Source of the DNA: an uncultured archaeon
GTDB lineage: Archaea; Asgardarchaeota; Hermodarchaeia; Hermodarchaeales; Hermodarchaeaceae
DNA: 64,000 nt
Reading direction: 5' to 3'
NCBI GenBank assembly: GCA_964347045.1
Contig: CAYFXC010000004.1
Location: 1-64,000, forward strand
Shown here piece by piece: positions 49,245-57,656 of this stretch. A program made the translations under genes and the position numbers. The notes below the pieces were generated by a model. It did not search any database, was not told the origin of the DNA, and saw only the letters and a program-made list of their open reading frames with translations. Within the stretch, counting starts at the first letter, position 1, and each line of letters opens with the position of its first letter.

Positions 49245-50675
49245 TCAAAGCGAAAGAAGATATTGATGAATATTCCGTGCGGCATTTTTTCCCTCGCCCG
49301 CAGCAGCGATGACAGTACCGTCGCCTCCAGTAATATCACCAGCGGCCCAGACATGTGATATAGAGGTTTCTAGTGAATCAGGATCAACAACGACATCACC
49401 CCATCGATCACATTCTAACCCAGGTGTACAACTGGGCACCGAAGGATTTGCTAAGGCACCAATGGCAAAAATCACTGTATCAACAGGAAAGTCAAATTCG
49501 GATCCCTCGATGGGTTCAGGACGGCATCTTCCACTTTCATCCGGATCCCCAAGGCAGTTACGGAGACATCGCATCCTCTTGACACGCATTTGGTCGTCAC
49601 CAACTAGCTCAATGGGTTGAGTAAGAAATTGAAACTCGACCCCTTCTTCTTTTGCATGATAATACTCTTCTCGGCGAACTGGCATTTCATTTTCTGAACG
49701 GCGGTACACGATTTGCACCTTGGAAGCGCCCAAACGAATTGCAGTGCGGGCACTGTCCATTGCTGCGTTTCCGCCGCCGATAACAGCAACAACTTTTCCT
49801 TGGATGATCGGCGTGTCATATTCGGGGAATTGGTAGGCGCGCATGAGATTGACACGAGTAAGGAACTCATTACTGCTATAGCTCCCGATAAGATTTACTC
49901 CAGGAATACGAAGAAATCGTGGTAGACCCGCCCCTGAGGCAAGAAGAATCGCATCATAACCTTGTCCAAAGAGATCGTCAAGAGTATATAATTGACCGAT
50001 GAACGCATTTAATTGAAATTCCACACCAAGTTGTTTTAAGTAATTAATTTCAGCTTTGACTATTGCTTTGGGGAGACGAAACTCTGGAATTCCATAAACA
50101 AGGACACCACCCGGTTCATGCAGGCTTTCAAAAACTGTTACTTGGTGGCCTAAAAGGGCTAGATCTCCTGCAGCCGTAAGGCCACCTGGACCACTCCCAA
50201 CAATTGCAATACGGCGTCCAGTTAGTTTGGGAAGCGGGGGTACTTCGACACCATGCTCCCGTTCCCAATCCGCAAGGAAGCGTTCAATGCGACCAATTTC
50301 GATAGCATATCCTTTCCTATTGAAGATGCAGCCTGCTTGACATTGTGTCTCTTGTGGGCAAACACGACCACAAATAGCTGGGAGACTATTTTTTTCTTTA
50401 ATGATTCGAATAGCCTCTCGATAATCCCGTCCGCGAACAGCTTCTAAAAACCGATCGATTTCAATCTCAACGGGGCACCCTTCAACGCATTTAGGGTTCT
50501 TACAAGCCATACACCGTTCAGCTTCTTGAAGAATCTGATCTTCGGAATATCCAAGATTAACCTCATCAAAATTATTAATCCGATCTTTGGGATCCTGATG
50601 GGGCATCCCTGGTGGCTCAATTAGCCAAGGACGGGGTCGTTCAGATTTTTTTTCTTTGTGTTTACCTGATGTCAT
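49245..50675 (-). CDS. nfnB: GltD-like flavoprotein: NfnB / SudA large subunit of the electron-bifurcating transhydrogenase
   Basis: EAERCMAC…CVEGCP, CGRVCPQETQC, GSGPGG, GGGNAAMD; partner NfnA at 56808; no GltB in window. Confidence 0.8.
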   Translation of the reverse strand: MTSGKHKEKKSERPRPWLIEPPGMPHQDPKDRINNFDEVNLGYSEDQILQEAERCMACKNPKCVEGCPVEIEIDRFLEAVRGRDYREAIRIIKEKNSLPAICGRVCPQETQCQAGCIFNRKGYAIEIGRIERFLADWEREHGVEVPPLPKLTGRRIAIVGSGPGGLTAAGDLALLGHQVTVFESLHEPGGVLVYGIPEFRLPKAIVKAEINYLKQLGVEFQLNAFIGQLYTLDDLFGQGYDAILLASGAGLPRFLRIPGVNLIGSYSSNEFLTRVNLMRAYQFPEYDTPIIQGKVVAVIGGGNAAMDSARTAIRLGASKVQIVYRRSENEMPVRREEYYHAKEEGVEFQFLTQPIELVGDDQMRVKRMRCLRNCLGDPDESGRCRPEPIEGSEFDFPVDTVIFAIGALANPSVPSCTPGLECDRWGDVVVDPDSLETSISHVWAAGDITGGDGTVIAAAGEGKNAARNIHQYLLSL

Positions 50676-50789: not shown

Positions 50790-52646
50790 TTATTTAGGCC
50801 ACATATCTTCTATAACTCCACTTAGACCCAATTTGGTTAGTAACTTCCGAGTGGGTTTACCTGTCGTTGAATCCCATTGGCTAATTTCATAAAATTGCTG
50901 GAGTTGTTGTTTTAAATTTGGAACTTGTCCTTTATTAGACCCGTGAGTAAAGGGTGTTGCAAGTCCTATTGGCAGGTGATCGTCAGCCCTAGTGATGCCA
51001 CAGCGAATATTAAAAGCCCGTTTCAAGGTCATTGACCTTTCACCAATTTCAAGAAGTTCAACTGGTGTAAGATTTCGACCCGTTGCGCTATTATAAAGAT
51101 CTGTTACGAGCGGAGGTTCAAGAAGAGCTAGTTGGCAAAGTGTGAGAGAGTTAAATAGGGTTCTCCAGTTCCGTAACCTTGCGATTTTTAATCCTTGATT
51201 TCGGTCTGCATGTCGATCACCAGGTTCAATATCAAATTCAGGAATTTCGACACCCATATCTATGGTTTGAACATCACCTTGCATGTGAGAGGCACCGATG
51301 GGAGATACAGCATAGGTAGTAGCTAGCCCAAAGAAAGCCCGCGGGTCATGTAAAGGAATTTCCAGTCCTTTCACATGAAGGGCTAGATCAGGAATTCCAA
51401 GTTTATCAGCAGCCCGCTTAACCCCTTCAGCAAGAATATCCCCCAGCTCCTGGCGATTGACAATCATTTCAATTAGTTGAATAATGGCTTCCCCATTTCC
51501 AAAGTTGAGCTCAACAGACCCAATAGAATCCTTAGGAATTTTTCCTTTCTCGTTTGCCGCAAAGCTGAATGCAATGACATTTCCACAAGAGATAGTATCG
51601 AGCCCATACAGGTTGCAGAGATGATTTGCTTGACATAATAGTGGAAGATTTTCAACCTGACAAAGAGACCCAAAAGCGCCAATTGTCTCATATTCAGGAC
51701 CTGCAACATTCGTTAGTGCTACATTTGATTCTTCAACGGTAATGATTGGACCACACCCAATTGGACAGGCATGACACCGAAATTGTCCTGTTCGGTATTT
51801 TTTCAGAGCGGAAGCATTAATTTTTGAAATATCCATGAGAGATTCCGTAAAATAGCGAACAGGCATACCATTGAAGAGATTCATTAGCATATCGGCACTA
51901 TAGAGAGTCCCGTTCGCTCCTAAAATGGGTGCTAGAATTTCGAGTAGCTGAAATGCAATTCTAACATGCTTTCGGAATGCTTCAGGATCAGCCAATTCTG
52001 GTTTGTGTGATCCTCGTACTGCAATAGCTTTCAATAATTTAGCCCCAAAAACAGCTCCCGCTCCAGCACGGGCACTGGCTCTCCCTGCATCATTCATAAT
52101 CGCTGCGAACCGAACTTTATTTTCTCCCCCTTTACCTATAGATAATACGCGAGTTTTAGGGTCGCTAGTTTCTTTTTTAATGATTTTTTCTGTGTCATAT
52201 GTGTCTATTCCCCAAAGATGATCGGCTGACTTGATTATGGCTTCATCGTCATTGATGTATAGATAAACTGGTGATTTTGCAGCACCGGTGATTAGTATTC
52301 CATCTAAACCAGCATGACGCAGTTCAGCGCCAAAATAGCCTCCTCCCGTTGACTCTCCCCAAATGCCAGTTAGTGCAGACTTGGTACCAATTGCATGCCG
52401 CCCAGTGCATGGAGCTCCTGTAGCTGTAAGAGGCCCTGTGAAAATTGCTACTTCGTTCGAAGGATGAAAGGGATCCAATTCTTCAACGTTCAGCCGATCA
52501 TAAAGTAACCGCGTAGCATAACCTGCGCCTCCGATGAAATCACGAGCATACGTCCAATTGAGTGGTTTTCGTTGGATCCTTCCTTTTGTTAGATCAACAA
52601 GGAGAAACTCACCCATGTATCCCCTCAGGGTGCGCACCTGAATCAC
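50790..52646 (-). CDS. aor: Tungsten aldehyde:ferredoxin oxidoreductase family protein
   Basis: KSALTG.WGES..GG, CHACPIGC, GPEYET, GLDTIS, VKGLEIP.HDPR. Confidence 0.9.
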   Translation of the reverse strand: MIQVRTLRGYMGEFLLVDLTKGRIQRKPLNWTYARDFIGGAGYATRLLYDRLNVEELDPFHPSNEVAIFTGPLTATGAPCTGRHAIGTKSALTGIWGESTGGGYFGAELRHAGLDGILITGAAKSPVYLYINDDEAIIKSADHLWGIDTYDTEKIIKKETSDPKTRVLSIGKGGENKVRFAAIMNDAGRASARAGAGAVFGAKLLKAIAVRGSHKPELADPEAFRKHVRIAFQLLEILAPILGANGTLYSADMLMNLFNGMPVRYFTESLMDISKINASALKKYRTGQFRCHACPIGCGPIITVEESNVALTNVAGPEYETIGAFGSLCQVENLPLLCQANHLCNLYGLDTISCGNVIAFSFAANEKGKIPKDSIGSVELNFGNGEAIIQLIEMIVNRQELGDILAEGVKRAADKLGIPDLALHVKGLEIPLHDPRAFFGLATTYAVSPIGASHMQGDVQTIDMGVEIPEFDIEPGDRHADRNQGLKIARLRNWRTLFNSLTLCQLALLEPPLVTDLYNSATGRNLTPVELLEIGERSMTLKRAFNIRCGITRADDHLPIGLATPFTHGSNKGQVPNLKQQLQQFYEISQWDSTTGKPTRKLLTKLGLSGVIEDMWPK

Positions 52647-53317
52647 CAGTTCTTCATGCGCTTCATAAACTCGAACATCTCTTGTTGGGTCTTTATCGCC
52701 TCAAATGGTAGGATAGGTAATTTCATCCTACCACCAGCAGCAGCAGAAGCGAGCAAATAAATGTGAGCAACACGCTCGAGCAATAAGGAATTATGGAGGG
52801 CTATGTCTAATGTAGGACCACAACAGAGAGCACCATGGTTGGCTAAAAACACTGCATTTCTTGGTCCTAATGCAGCGACAACATTCTTTGCTAATTCTTC
52901 AGTTCCAGGCATACCGTATTTTGCCACTTCTACTTGTCCTCCCAGACGGATGACAAATTCGTCGACAATGGGAGGTAACGGTTTTTGAAGTACTGCCATA
53001 GCTGAGGCATAGATACAATGTGTATGAACTATAGCGTTCACATCAGGTCGAGCTTTGTAAATGGCTAAATGAAGAGGATACTCAATTGAAGGATTTCGAT
53101 CCCCCTCAACAATGTCACCAGCCATATTGATGATCATAACATCCTCAGCGCCCATACAAGAATAATCAACGCTACTTGGAGTAATTGCAATATTGTCTGT
53201 ATCCACGATTCGAAAACTAGCGTTTCCAGAACTACCGATGACTAACTCGGCGTTTTGCATGTTCTGACAGGTTTTGAGCACTTTATTTTTGGCTTCTTTG
53301 ATTTTTTCGGGTGTCAT
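52643..53317 (-). CDS. Class II aldolase/adducin family (FucA-like)
   Basis: GSSGNAS, ITPS, PSIEYPLH, HTH, LANHG; ATG 53317 avoids overlap with the kinase gene. Confidence 0.9.
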   Translation of the reverse strand: MTPEKIKEAKNKVLKTCQNMQNAELVIGSSGNASFRIVDTDNIAITPSSVDYSCMGAEDVMIINMAGDIVEGDRNPSIEYPLHLAIYKARPDVNAIVHTHCIYASAMAVLQKPLPPIVDEFVIRLGGQVEVAKYGMPGTEELAKNVVAALGPRNAVFLANHGALCCGPTLDIALHNSLLLERVAHIYLLASAAAGGRMKLPILPFEAIKTQQEMFEFMKRMKNW

Positions 53318-53345
53318 TTCAATCCGCCAACCATTAAGCATGAAA

Positions 53346-54875
53346 TTATAGATTTGCAGATTGCTTGTATAATGTTTGCCATCTGGTGAAATAACTTTCG
53401 TACTTTTTGTGCACATCCTGGCGGGGTAAAAGCTCAGACTGTAAAACAACCATATTATGCATTGCTTCAGCTAGCGATTTGTACATTCCCGCTGCAGTTG
53501 CTGCACAAATTGCCGCACCCAAACTCGAGGCCTCAGCGACTTTACCACATCTAGTTTTCAATCCAGTCACATCAGCAAGCATTTGTCGCCAAAAACTACT
53601 TCGTGCCATTCCTCCGGCTACCGTACAAAACTCAAACTGGTATGGAGCCAAGTCCTGAATTAGCTCTATATTTGTGTGAATTGCATAACTGATATTTTCA
53701 AACAACGCGCGTGTTACTTCCTTAATCGAAATGGGTGTCACAACAGGTGAAGCAGGAGCAGGAAAAAGAAAAATCGAAGGGCGAATAGTGGCCATATCCC
53801 TTGCGTTCATTATCTGAGGACCTAGTAACGCAAACGTATCGAAAGAGCCCACGGGCGCCTCAGAAGCTAGCTCTTCAAGACGACGAAATGCTAAATCGGT
53901 TGAACCCTTCAAATCCTTGCAAAGAGGACTTAGCATATTCTGCACAAACCAGCTTAGAACCGACCCTGTTGTTCCCGAATTGGCTTCAAGCACCCATCTA
54001 TGAGGAAAGAGAAATCTTCCTGTCCAGAGCCGATTATCTGGGTCTATAACGGGTTCGGATGTCACAAGTTGGACTGGTGCTGTATTACCTGCCACTACTC
54101 CAACATCCCCAGGTTCAGTGGCAGCCGATCCCAAAAGAGCACATTGAGTATCTGCTCCCCCAATGCCAACAACTGAAGCTGTTGACAGCCCAGTACTTTT
54201 ACTCGCCTTTTCAGATACGTTATCAACTAAGGAGCCAGGTTCAGAAATCACAGGTAATAAATCAGCAGATAACTCCGCCATTTCTAAAATTTCAGGTGAC
54301 CATTCTGAGGATTGAATGTCCATGAATTGAGTATTTGAAGCCTGTGTGGGATCAGTTGTAGCTTGACCGGTGAGTTGGTAGACAATCCAGTCACTGATAG
54401 ATAGGACATGTTTAATTTTTGAAAATTGTTCGGGTTTTTCACGTTTATACCAGAGAAGTCGACATAGAGAATATAATAGGGGTGGCCAACACCCAGTTGG
54501 CGGACAGGTTTCCTCCAAACCTTTCATTACTATACTCTGAACAAGTACCCCACGACCATCAAGATTAGGTCCAGCGTAGATAACTGCGCCTCTCTCATCG
54601 AGAAAAACAGCGCCGTGTCTTTGACTCGTAGCGACGATACTGATAATGTCGGAAGGTTTGGATTTGGCATCTCTCAACGCGATAGGTATCATTTTGCATA
54701 TGGTTTGCCATGCTTCTTTGGCGTTGAATTCTTTTCCAATTCCAAAGAGTCCTTCTGAATCGAAATATTGAATGGGTGTAAATTGCCGAGCACGGACTAT
54801 TCCTTTGTGTGAAAAAATCATGCATTTAATACCAGATGTACCAAAATCTATTGTGAGTAATTGTTGTTTGGACAT
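53346..54875 (-). CDS. FGGY carbohydrate kinase (YoaC/LsrK-like)
   Basis: IDFGTSG, TSQRHG, GGADTQ, AGG.ARS..W.QMLADV, LGAAI. Confidence 0.9.
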   Translation of the reverse strand: MSKQQLLTIDFGTSGIKCMIFSHKGIVRARQFTPIQYFDSEGLFGIGKEFNAKEAWQTICKMIPIALRDAKSKPSDIISIVATSQRHGAVFLDERGAVIYAGPNLDGRGVLVQSIVMKGLEETCPPTGCWPPLLYSLCRLLWYKREKPEQFSKIKHVLSISDWIVYQLTGQATTDPTQASNTQFMDIQSSEWSPEILEMAELSADLLPVISEPGSLVDNVSEKASKSTGLSTASVVGIGGADTQCALLGSAATEPGDVGVVAGNTAPVQLVTSEPVIDPDNRLWTGRFLFPHRWVLEANSGTTGSVLSWFVQNMLSPLCKDLKGSTDLAFRRLEELASEAPVGSFDTFALLGPQIMNARDMATIRPSIFLFPAPASPVVTPISIKEVTRALFENISYAIHTNIELIQDLAPYQFEFCTVAGGMARSSFWRQMLADVTGLKTRCGKVAEASSLGAAICAATAAGMYKSLAEAMHNMVVLQSELLPRQDVHKKYESYFTRWQTLYKQSANL

Positions 54876-54887
54876 GCCATACGCCCA

Positions 54888-55919
54888 TTAAGATGATTTG
54901 AGAACTTCTGGGTTTGCTAAGTATTTGGGAGTTTCTCCCTTTAAGAATCGGTTAATATCCGAGGCTAAAATCATTGATTGTCGATACACTACATCGAGGG
55001 TATTTCCTCCAATATGTGGTGTTACTGTGACATTATCGAATTGTAGGAATCGATTATTTGATCCAACTGGTTCTCGCGAATGAACGTCAAGCCCTGCCCC
55101 GGCAATCCTTCCTGTTTGAATAGCTTCAAACAAAGCCTCTTCGTCAATGATGGCTGAACGAGCTGTATTAATCAGATGAGCAGAAGGCTTCATCCATGCA
55201 AGTTGCTCTTTTCCAATCATTCTAAATGTTTCTGGAGTTGCCCGTGTATGAATAGTGATAAAATCCGATTCTCGCATGAGGGTTTCCAAATCTACTTTTT
55301 TTGCATTCACCTTCTTTCCATGTTTGGCATCAATATTGGGATCAGAGAAGAGAACTCGGGTTCCAAAGCCTTGTAGGCGTTCAGCGACTCGAAAGCCAAT
55401 TTGACCCAAGCCGATAATACCAACAGTACTTCGTCCTAGTTCTCGACCCTTAAGCGAGTCATGAAGTGTAGTAAACTTTTCAGCGCTGTTAATCTCGACT
55501 TGGCCTGATCTAAGAAGTCGATCCATATTGATGAGTTTGCGAGCCTGAGCGAGTATTAAAAGAATTGTCAGGTCTGCAACTGAGTCGGCATTCCTTCCAG
55601 GAGCATAGAACACTGGTACGCGATGAGCGGTTGCTGAGTCGATATCAATTTCTTTGGGACTATCTCGCGCACTTGCCAAGAATTTCAGAGGGAATCCTTC
55701 AAAGACTTCTTCTGTCACCGCATCTGCCTCAACAATGGCAGCATCTGCTTTGACAGCTTTGAGTTTTTCAAGAAACTCTTCACCCCAATAGATATGCCCA
55801 GTAATACGCCAATCTTCATGTATAACAGTAGCATGTTGACGTAGTATTGTGATTCCTTCTTCATGAAATGAGGCAGTAATCAGAATGCGCATATTTCTTC
55901 GCATCCTCAATATAGCCAA
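54888..55919 (-). CDS. D-isomer-specific 2-hydroxyacid dehydrogenase family (YoaD-like)
   Basis: PGRNADSVA, GLGQIG, INTAR, LDV..EP, TPHIGG. Confidence 0.9.
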   Translation of the reverse strand: MAILRMRRNMRILITASFHEEGITILRQHATVIHEDWRITGHIYWGEEFLEKLKAVKADAAIVEADAVTEEVFEGFPLKFLASARDSPKEIDIDSATAHRVPVFYAPGRNADSVADLTILLILAQARKLINMDRLLRSGQVEINSAEKFTTLHDSLKGRELGRSTVGIIGLGQIGFRVAERLQGFGTRVLFSDPNIDAKHGKKVNAKKVDLETLMRESDFITIHTRATPETFRMIGKEQLAWMKPSAHLINTARSAIIDEEALFEAIQTGRIAGAGLDVHSREPVGSNNRFLQFDNVTVTPHIGGNTLDVVYRQSMILASDINRFLKGETPKYLANPEVLKSS

Positions 55920-55920
55920 A

Positions 55921-56256
55921 CTACATAAGGATTTGGAGTTTCAATAGATCTGTCATACTTCCTTTTGCCTTCAATGTACCCATGGAATAAGCGTCAAGGG
56001 GACTCAGGTTACCTTGCAAGACTCCGATAAGCGTTCCACTATCCGTGGTAACTAAGAGATTAGGTTTTTCTAATTTACCTTCAGAAAAGGGATCCATTTC
56101 TCCATCATGGATGCGCGTATGGAAACTCGTTTCAAGATCAGAGAAACGGAATTGTAAAGTTCGGTCGAATCCTTCGAACTTAGACTTAGTACCCGGAGTA
56201 TTGAATTTCTCACGAATCCCCTCAAGCACCTTCAAGACCTCGTCTTTTGTTGCCAT
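55921..56256 (-). CDS. SCP2 sterol/lipid-binding domain protein
   Basis: G.LSPLDAYSMGTLKAKGSMTDLLKL; GGTGA RBS. Confidence 0.85.
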   Translation of the reverse strand: MATKDEVLKVLEGIREKFNTPGTKSKFEGFDRTLQFRFSDLETSFHTRIHDGEMDPFSEGKLEKPNLLVTTDSGTLIGVLQGNLSPLDAYSMGTLKAKGSMTDLLKLQILM

Positions 56257-56365: not shown

Positions 56366-56725
56366 TTAGATTGGGAGAAAAGGTAAAATGGTCAACCCTA
56401 TCAATCCAACCCCAAGCAACAAAACACCGGTAACTAGAATTACTACACCACTACTCGCTTGCTCAACACGCCTATCTGAGTAATGCCTTGCTGTGTCACG
56501 GGTTGATTGTGGATTTACAGCATATCGCATCGTTGCCATAGCTTCAATAAATGGTGTCTGGAGACACGCGCCGAAAATCAACATAATTACTCCGAGGAAT
56601 AATAAAACCAAAAAGTAACTCGCAAGTGTCCAAATCTGAAATACTAGAAAATTCACAACCCATGCCAGTACAAAACAAATAATCAAAGATACTGTTAATC
56701 GCTTTCCAAAGGAGATCCAATCCAT
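56366..56725 (-). CDS. Small 3-TM hypothetical protein
   Basis: Three hydrophobic helices. Confidence 0.6.
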   Translation of the reverse strand: MDWISFGKRLTVSLIICFVLAWVVNFLVFQIWTLASYFLVLLFLGVIMLIFGACLQTPFIEAMATMRYAVNPQSTRDTARHYSDRRVEQASSGVVILVTGVLLLGVGLIGLTILPFLPI

Positions 56726-56807: not shown

Positions 56808-57656
56808 TCAATGACCCTTTAAATTGTGGGCGCATTTATCTTTGTACGCCTCAAAAGCCTGAAACTCCTGCCGCTTATAGATTTCAAGACGGGATAGTAG
56901 CAAATCAAAATTTACTTCATGGGCATCAAACTCAGGACCATCAACGCAGGCAAACTTCATTTCACCACCAATCTCAACTCGACAGGCGCCACACATTCCT
57001 GTGCCATCTACCATGATAGGGTTTAAGCTACATTCGGTTTTTACACCAAAAGATTTCGTGATTGCTGCAACAAATTTCATCATGATTGGTGGTCCGACAG
57101 TAAAGACATAGTCAATTTTTCGATTGGATTCAAGTAGTTCTTTTAGTTTTGTTGTGACGAATCCTTGTGTTCCTTTTGAGCCATCATCGGTGGTGACGTG
57201 GAGTTCATCACTTACTTGGCTAAGTTCGATTTCACAAACAAGGAGATCTTCCTGCCGTGCGCCTAGAATCGTTATGAGCTTATTTCCTGCGTCTTTAAAT
57301 TGATGTGCCCGTGGAAGAGCTTCTGCAGCACCGCAACCCCCAGCAACCACAACTACAGTTCCATAATTCTCTACAGCGGGAGGATTTCCCAATGGCCCAA
57401 GGATATCTTTAATCGTATCACCAGGTTTCAATTGAGCTAGTTCCATTGTGGATTTGCCAACGACTTGAAAAACAATAGTAATAGAACCTGTTTCACTATC
57501 CCAGTTTTTGATAGTGAGAGGAATTCGTTCCCCATGGTCGTGTAGACGATAAATAAGAAACTGCCCTGGACTGGCTTTTGCAGCAATTTTGGGAGCTTCC
57601 ACATCAAACTCGTAGATATCAATGGCAATTTGGCGAGTTGCTAAAACTTTGAACAT
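56808..57656 (-). CDS. nfnA: NfnA / SudB small subunit (FAD, 2Fe-2S)
   Basis: PGQF…GERIPLT, GPLGNP, TDDGS.G..G.VT, MVDGTGMCGACRV, CVDGPEFD. Confidence 0.9.
   Translation of the reverse strand: MFKVLATRQIAIDIYEFDVEAPKIAAKASPGQFLIYRLHDHGERIPLTIKNWDSETGSITIVFQVVGKSTMELAQLKPGDTIKDILGPLGNPPAVENYGTVVVVAGGCGAAEALPRAHQFKDAGNKLITILGARQEDLLVCEIELSQVSDELHVTTDDGSKGTQGFVTTKLKELLESNRKIDYVFTVGPPIMMKFVAAITKSFGVKTECSLNPIMVDGTGMCGACRVEIGGEMKFACVDGPEFDAHEVNFDLLLSRLEIYKRQEFQAFEAYKDKCAHNLKGH

Follow-up and report, generated by a model that had tools for sequence, protein, structure and literature searches.

The 64,000-nt stretch of contig CAYFXC010000004.1 analysed here (the window; coordinates are positions in it) comes from an Asgard (Hermodarchaeota-like) archaeal assembly of 2.58 Mb that is 89% complete, and it raises the question why a gene for the lipid-carrier domain SCP2 stands at the head of an operon encoding sugar-type and redox enzymes. 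We propose, with a probability of about 0.45, that the operon is the unfused Asgard form, extended by an aldehyde:ferredoxin oxidoreductase (AOR), of a widespread four-part catabolic system for amphipathic substrates, composed of an LsrK-like kinase, an oxidoreductase of the D-2-hydroxyacid dehydrogenase family, an SCP2 protein and a zinc-dependent aldolase. The operon pathway probably removes a three-carbon sugar phosphate from a partly hydrophobic polyol. The five genes are, from 5′ to 3′:

55921..56256, minus strand: SCP2-domain protein, stand-alone and soluble, 111 amino acids (aa) (PF02036)
54888..55892, minus strand: NAD-type oxidoreductase of the D-2-hydroxyacid dehydrogenase family, 334 aa (PF02826); start ATG 55892, alternatives in-frame ATG 55904 and TTG 55919
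53346..54875, minus strand: FGGY carbohydrate kinase, LsrK-like, 509 aa (PF00370 and PF02782)
52643..53317, minus strand: class II (Zn) aldolase-family enzyme, 224 aa (PF00596); alternative start ATG 53341
50790..52616, minus strand: putative tungsten-type AOR, 608 aa (PF02730 and PF01314); start ATG 52616, alternative GTG 52646

According to the list of open reading frames (ORFs) and to profile searches with Pfam and NCBIfam, all five genes (56256..50790) are intact and lie on the minus strand, forming the domain series SCP2, D-2-hydroxyacid dehydrogenase, FGGY kinase, class II aldolase and AOR. With the likeliest ATG start codons (55892, 54875, 53317 and 52616), the intergenic gaps measure 28, 12, 28 and 26 nt. 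The tight packing and the domain assignments of the initial annotation were thereby borne out by ORFs, profiles and motifs, while the overlap between aldolase and AOR genes that it also described exists only if the upstream GTG 52646 is taken as AOR start and is lost with ATG 52616, which is preceded by GAGGGG. The gene arrangement lies far beyond chance: its flanked order is found again in genomes of the same family, and further Asgard families possess the cluster too.

For the analysis of conservation, 301 Asgard genomes were sampled and gene orders were read from 20-kb regions; the sample families carry codes, f1 being the window's own. Kinase orthologues were detected in 89 of the 301 genomes, usually beside SCP2, making this a widespread combination. 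Outside f1, an SCP2 gene is located within about 6 kb of at least 48 of the 72 kinase orthologues, a count for which SCP2 coordinates were matched to the orthologues by hand. SCP2 orthologues of 62–86% identity exist, and those of at least 62% are confined to the lineage of the window. A profile built from close SCP2 homologues hits 207 of the 301 genomes, and its best hits outside f1 again adjoin pathway genes, though they are only 35–41% identical. The following orders were found (DH, dehydrogenase; FGGY, kinase; ALD, aldolase):

f6: SCP2-DH-FGGY-ALD-AOR, followed in three of eight loci by a second SCP2 gene on the opposite strand
f21: AOR-SCP2-ALD-FGGY-DH
f14 and f20: SCP2-DH-FGGY(-ALD)
f9: FGGY-SCP2-DH::ALD, the last two fused (SCP2 by a broader profile)
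f30: only the kinase beside four tandem SCP2-like ORFs (L080:10857-12539)

Four Asgard gene orders thus keep SCP2 with dehydrogenase, kinase and aldolase. In the f30 locus, a nitroreductase-family gene and an MFS carrier lie nearby.

Further evidence came from bacteria. Ten bacterial proteins of 1247–1382 aa were retrieved as longer kinase relatives; they carry FGGY (residues 1–450), 2-Hacid_dh (520–850), SCP2 (930–1020) and Aldolase_II (1060–1240) domains in this order. One cluster of these fusions is named from Myxococcota, and a 930-aa form from Halioglobus is without the aldolase domain. Single multidomain proteins of this kind occur in several bacterial phyla. The SCP2 domain of the fusions matches the profile of the Asgard operon SCP2 end to end, and their dehydrogenase domain is 34–41% identical to the window dehydrogenase. 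In the ESM Atlas, a cluster of 81 four-domain fusion proteins is present, and two-domain fusions of FGGY and dehydrogenase are common in bacteria. When a plasmid collection was searched by tblastn with a fused protein, separate LsrK and dehydrogenase genes only, and no fusion, were found; likewise, 401 Actinomycetota genomes gave no FGGY-DH-SCP2 form at E <= 1e-100, a threshold that may be too strict. Because SCP2 is fused with the three enzymes in one protein, it belongs to the kinase-dehydrogenase-aldolase system and not just to the AOR step. An alternative role of SCP2 purely as AOR partner, prompted by a second SCP2-led module of the same genome (see below), was rejected on account of these fusions. 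Whether the SCP2 linkage holds in homologous operons, a check that the initial annotation had proposed, is thus answered positively by the kinase neighbourhoods, the four gene orders and the bacterial fusion, and SCP2 is supported as an integral, conserved component of the system.

The SCP2 protein itself scores 32.7 bits with PF02036 (gathering cut-off 21.3). Its AlphaFold model reaches a predicted local distance difference test (pLDDT) value of 92.8 and was matched by Foldseek with a probability of 1.0 and template modelling (TM) scores of 0.65–0.77 to 3bn8, 1ikt, 1c44, 2cfu and 6h6o; the matches of the model include archaeal, human and insect SCP2, SCP2 domains of alkylsulfatases, and UbiJ. 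The protein is thus predicted by the model to adopt the alpha/beta SCP2 fold. The canonical C-terminal helix reads G-x-M-x-D-L-L-K-L-Q in the window, and what is shared across families is limited to the canonical fold motifs, above all the helix G-x-x-x-D-L-L-K-L-Q. We also considered that SCP2 might be a small enzyme comparable to the isomerase LsrG; the polar residues D31, R32, R48 and H50 are invariant only in the family of the window, and the idea was dropped because operon-linked SCP2 proteins of other families share the fold motifs only.

From these components, the following route can be drawn. The kinase would phosphorylate the terminal primary hydroxyl group of a polyol-type end group, and the C2 hydroxyl next to it would then be oxidised by the dehydrogenase, so that the phospho-compound would acquire a 1-phospho-2-ketose end. 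Cleavage between C3 and C4 by the aldolase would release dihydroxyacetone phosphate (DHAP) and an aldehyde bearing the remainder of the molecule, and in these Asgard lineages the putative tungsten AOR would convert this aldehyde to the acid with reduction of ferredoxin, which the flanking NfnAB-type genes could balance against NAD(P)H. SCP2 would hold a hydrophobic portion of either the substrate or the aldehyde or acid product, and the substrate would therefore probably be amphipathic and not a plain sugar.

For the kinase, the LsrK model NF008187 matches over the full length with 274 bits, below its equivalog cut-off of 528, and the match to the LsrK structure (PDB 5ya0) amounts to 204 bits. 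LsrK is the nearest characterised kinase at about 30–34% identity, and the motifs DFGTSG and GGADTQ are intact. In a kinase tree made by a quick search with midpoint rooting, 23 of 26 Asgard kinases form one clade in which SCP2-linked and unlinked members are intermingled, while the kinases of the fused form make up a separate clade near LsrK. None of the lsr context genes (LsrR, LsrACDB, LsrF, LsrG) was seen in the window or the Asgard loci.

The dehydrogenase scores 183 bits with PF02826 and 185 bits with PDB 6bii; its best NCBIfam model, the glyoxylate reductase NF009714, gives 219 bits against an equivalog cut-off of 455, and the GhrB model 164 against 492. The GxGxxG motif of the NAD domain (GLGQIG) and the catalytic Arg-Glu-His triad (NTAR, REP, TPHIGG) are present, but the canonical loop for the substrate carboxylate, AVGxDN (A/G-V-G-x-D-N), is replaced by ARDSP in the window enzyme and by CRG in relatives. 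The family moreover has two additional invariant arginines in substrate loops, in the CRG/ARD and PGRN motifs. Judging from these extra arginines, the domain order of the fusions and the frequent fusion of FGGY with dehydrogenase domains, the kinase most likely acts before the dehydrogenase. The initial annotation had placed the oxidation of a polyol to a 2-ketose first, which does not suit an enzyme of the D-2-hydroxyacid dehydrogenase family acting on a free polyol; the fusion order and the two arginines point instead to phosphorylation followed by oxidation of the phosphorylated compound.

The aldolase scores 177 bits with PF00596, and all its equivalog models fall under the cut-off: the FucA models TIGR01086 (111 against 400) and PRK06833 (152 against 264) as well as the model NF053831 for ribulose-1-phosphate (Ru1P) aldolase (152 against 300). 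DrdA (6btd) scores like FucA. In the alignment with E. coli FucA, the zinc ligands His92, His94 and His155 and also the catalytic Glu73 are retained in 49 of 49 family members, whereas Tyr113-Met114 is changed to Asp-Glu, Phe131 to Pro and Ser72 to Ile; Asp113 occurs in 41 and Pro131 in 37 of the 49 members, and the residue after position 113 is Glu or Asp. The earlier view of the enzyme as FucA-type does not hold at the aldehyde site, where the acid/base residue Tyr113 and Phe131 of the aldehyde pocket are exchanged. The general logic of kinase, class II aldolase and AOR, i.e., formation of DHAP and an aldehyde that is oxidised to the acid, stays plausible.

The AOR scores 230 bits with PF02730, 358 bits with PF01314 and, over the full length, 368 bits with the Pyrococcus furiosus AOR 1aor. 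The CxxCxxxC motif for the [4Fe-4S] cluster and PEYET occur in the sequence, which suggests a putative tungsten-type enzyme nearest to the broad-range AOR of P. furiosus. It is one of ten AOR-family paralogues in the 2.6 Mb genome. In the 20-kb regions of the Asgard loci, AOR adjacency accompanies SCP2.

Several points weigh against an amphipathic substrate and the proposed chemistry. SCP2 domains can play structural roles. In the Asgard families f7, f8, f12 and f18, the triad of kinase, dehydrogenase and aldolase is present and SCP2 was not found nearby, and 80 metagenome loci of Chloroflexi-type kinase relatives show the order DH-FGGY(-ALD) without SCP2 or AOR. These Chloroflexi-type loci are perhaps poor guides, since in most of their dehydrogenases (L086-L158, e.g., L128:7001-8002) the catalytic Arg is gone (NAASAY or NTAGAA for NTAR), as is the Glu (ETWP for xxEP), with His and the family arginines of CRG and PARN kept; these enzymes may catalyse a different reaction or play a non-catalytic role. 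In the SCP2-less bacterial locus L159, the dehydrogenase is canonical and keeps its catalytic triad residues, and a CUT2 ABC importer (ribose/AI-2-type; AI-2, autoinducer-2), an amidohydrolase and a GntR regulator are present and neither LsrF nor LsrG is; this context fits a soluble sugar or sugar acid. The known substrates of D-2-hydroxyacid dehydrogenases are compounds in which the reacting group adjoins a carboxylate, or small anions, and do not include polyol phosphates, and the retained catalytic Arg of the window dehydrogenase could mean an acid substrate. With FucA Tyr113 missing, aldol cleavage by the window enzyme is a prediction based on Glu73, on the metal site and on the presence of an AOR gene next door. 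Finally, no lipase or lipid-transport gene was noticed to recur beside the module. A substrate with a hydrophobic tail, as first suggested in the initial annotation, is nevertheless reasonable, because SCP2 is integral to the system, being linked to it Asgard-wide and fused in bacteria; the qualification is that SCP2-less triads exist, one of them beside a ribose/AI-2-type ABC transporter.

A wider version of the amphipathic-substrate proposal is a general head-clipping pathway for polyol-ended lipids, in which SCP2 would present the tail, the last three carbons would leave as DHAP, and the lipid aldehyde would be converted by the AOR to a fatty or terpenoid acid, with bacteriohopanepolyols as one natural substrate; we regard this generalisation as tentative and, taken as a whole, rather doubtful.

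Among the rival explanations, the most serious one, although unlikely in our view, is the catabolism or salvage of a small soluble substrate, i.e., a pentulose, a deoxy-pentulose, a 5-substituted 5-deoxyribose arising as by-product of S-adenosylmethionine (SAM) enzymes, or a diketone like AI-2 or 4,5-dihydroxy-2,3-pentanedione (DPD). The joint products of kinase and aldolase would be DHAP and one of three aldehydes (acetaldehyde, glycolaldehyde or lactaldehyde), which the AOR would turn into the acid; the dehydrogenase would serve either to reduce an alpha-dicarbonyl or to oxidise the 2-hydroxyacid so formed, and SCP2 would be left as a mere accessory or scaffold. This would suit the position of LsrK as nearest characterised kinase, which also lies within the kinase tree, the ranking of Ru1P aldolase and FucA as best aldolase models with DrdA scoring like FucA, and the wide spread of SCP2-less triads, one beside a CUT2 sugar ABC system. 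The S-box regulation of the B. subtilis yoaDCB unit (PMC2743287) offers a lead only. However, a freely soluble C5 compound is hard to reconcile with an SCP2 that stayed beside these enzymes despite several rearrangements and became fused between the bacterial dehydrogenase and aldolase domains; furthermore, no FucI-, DrdI- or LsrG-type isomerase was seen in the Asgard operons, and every equivalog score falls short of its cut-off by about half.

Less probable still is a sugar-acid route running in another order: the AOR would convert an aldose or hydroxy-aldehyde to an aldonate and the dehydrogenase would make a 2-keto acid, the kinase would phosphorylate the far end, and the class II enzyme, as an OtnC-like decarboxylase or isomerase, would give DHAP and CO2. 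It would account for the carboxylate that the dehydrogenase family normally needs, for the retained catalytic Arg and for Asp in place of FucA Tyr113, and the aldolase does score 111 bits with the OtnC model; a lactonase-type Amidohydro_2 gene in one bacterial locus would also have a place. Yet the bacterial and several of the Asgard versions do without the AOR, which marks it as an add-on rather than an entry step, its gene comes after the aldolase gene in f1 and f6, no OtnI-type isomerase is present, and SCP2 is left without a role.

The weakest candidate, bacteriohopane-32,33,34,35-tetrol (BHT), put forward in the initial annotation as a source of DHAP and a C32 aldehyde oxidised to bishomohopanoic acid, is very improbable as the specific substrate: chemically, a terminal tetrol with D-ribitol-type stereochemistry and an aldolase of the FucA/Ru1P type would be compatible with it, SCP2 forms an integral part of the system, Asgard archaea inhabit hopanoid-bearing sediments, and a literature search found no description of enzymes for the BHT cleavage step, but none of the present results is specific to hopanoids, the module is also fused in aerobic marine and soil-type bacteria, and in one SCP2-bearing locus it is accompanied by a CUT1 sugar ABC importer and a GH4 glycosidase.

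The locus last mentioned is a metagenome contig (L161:455-16491) on which two SCP2 genes and FGGY, DH, AOR and ALD genes stand with the GH4 glycosidase, two SBP_bac_1 proteins, two CUT1 ABC permeases and an MFS carrier. Its gene content hints at an imported glycoside whose aglycone may feed the module.

The genes around the window operon are:

56366..56725, minus strand: orf119, small predicted membrane protein located 5′ of the SCP2 gene; membership in the system uncertain
56808..57656, minus strand: NfnA/SudB-like subunit with FAD/NAD and Fe-S sites, upstream flank (NF004862)
49245..50675, minus strand: NfnB/SudA-like (GltD-type) NADPH oxidoreductase subunit, downstream flank (TIGR01316)

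No Pfam or NCBIfam match was obtained for orf119, whose hydrophobic segments were judged by eye only; it is kept at 52–65% identity and in the same place between nfnA and the SCP2 gene, only in loci of the same family. Both flanking subunits score above their cut-offs (396 bits against 220 for NF004862; 536 against 472 for TIGR01316). They normally form one two-subunit enzyme and are here split by orf119 and the operon, a split conserved in the family: the order of nfnA/orf119, the five genes and nfnB is retained in same-family genomes at 58–86% identity. The split NfnAB-type pair may couple ferredoxin reduced by the AOR to NAD(P)H. Next to the f6 operon (L066:14808-19546, mirrored in L067), an HdrA-like flavo-iron-sulfur protein of 1057 aa is encoded, and the same region holds CCG-domain (HdrB-like) and Fer4 genes, an ABC-2 exporter pair and an HTH_34 regulator. 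The NfnAB-type neighbours here and the Hdr-like genes in f6 could rebalance electrons.

A second SCP2-led module was found in the same genome, outside the window:

G000:C4:142014-146557 (L166:6014-10558), minus strand: SCP2b (135 aa), Fe-type alcohol dehydrogenase (FeADH, 389 aa), AOR2 (612 aa) and a familyless protein of 305 aa

SCP2b was detected in 202 of the 301 Asgard genomes. The SCP2b-FeADH pair is present in all 29 sampled loci, which belong to families f1, f4, f6, f14 and f20, and is followed by AOR2 in 22 of them; the remaining stretches end first. This module resembles an alcohol/aldehyde/acid route serving a hydrophobic substrate. The SCP2 gene of one f6 locus is immediately preceded by two acyl-CoA-ligase genes. 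Taken together, the adjacency of AOR and SCP2, the SCP2b-FeADH-AOR2 module and the acyl-CoA-ligase neighbours suggest an association of the SCP2 proteins of these archaea with hydrophobic aldehydes or acids.

It is unusual for a Rosetta-stone fusion to place a lipid-carrier domain between a dehydrogenase of sugar type and an aldolase, and this suggests amphipathic substrates of a class whose breakdown is undescribed. With a polyol lipid, for example a hopanepolyol, as substrate, the gene set would be tied to a reaction of early diagenesis that organic geochemists make use of; if the head-clipping pathway is true, sedimentary C32 hopanoic acids would have an enzymatic origin, and in both cases lipid scavenging would become part of Asgard physiology. 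Even with a small substrate, there would be new specificities for LsrK-like kinases, for a phosphate-adapted branch of 2-hydroxyacid dehydrogenases and for class II aldolases lacking Tyr113, and one of the many Asgard AOR paralogues would gain a physiological partner.

Each component comes from a known enzyme family, and the combination is without a published description that we could find: literature searches on the gene combination, on SCP2 in Asgard archaea and on yoaDC gave no functional description. In the YoaD/YoaC pair of B. subtilis, a gene of the 2-hydroxyacid dehydrogenase family adjoins an FGGY kinase gene; the likeness is one of gene families, and no SCP2, aldolase or AOR is known from that locus. 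The order of phosphorylation before oxidation has a parallel in the erythritol pathway of Brucella, where the FGGY kinase EryA phosphorylates the polyol first and the dehydrogenase EryB then oxidises the polyol phosphate; EryB, however, is a flavoprotein of another family, and isomerases follow, with no aldolase, SCP2 or AOR. The Lsr processing of AI-2 (LsrK-LsrG-LsrF) shares a similar kinase and has DHAP among its end products, whereas the window system is without LsrG, LsrF and LsrR and has a dehydrogenase and a class II aldolase instead of an isomerase and a thiolase.

In the L-fucose and L-rhamnose routes of E. coli (FucK-FucA, RhaB-RhaD, AldA/FucO), an FGGY kinase likewise produces a ketose-1-phosphate, which a zinc class II aldolase cleaves to DHAP and an aldehyde that is then oxidised or reduced. 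The window system differs by having no isomerase, by an obligatory enzyme of the D-2-hydroxyacid dehydrogenase family, by a putative tungsten AOR for the aldehyde and by SCP2, and its aldolase departs from FucA in Asp for Tyr113, Pro for Phe131 and equivalog scores under the cut-offs. For SCP2, the counterpart is found in peroxisomal MFE-2 (dehydrogenase-hydratase-SCP2) and SCPx (thiolase-SCP2), in which SCP2 is joined to or encoded with catabolic enzymes for hydrophobic substrates; an SDR-SCP2-MaoC protein (P0184) was among our search hits. In contrast to the beta-oxidation enzymes there, the partners in the window are sugar-type, namely an FGGY kinase and a class II aldolase. In the DHAP shunt for disposal of 5-deoxyribose (DrdK-DrdI-DrdA; MtnK-MtnA-Ald2), the kinase is from another family than that of the window, an isomerase is used, and dehydrogenase, SCP2 and AOR are additions of the window system; its class II aldolase yields DHAP and an aldehyde carrying the C5 substituent, and by analogy this is the closest formal chemistry to the proposed clipping of a ribitol-like end.

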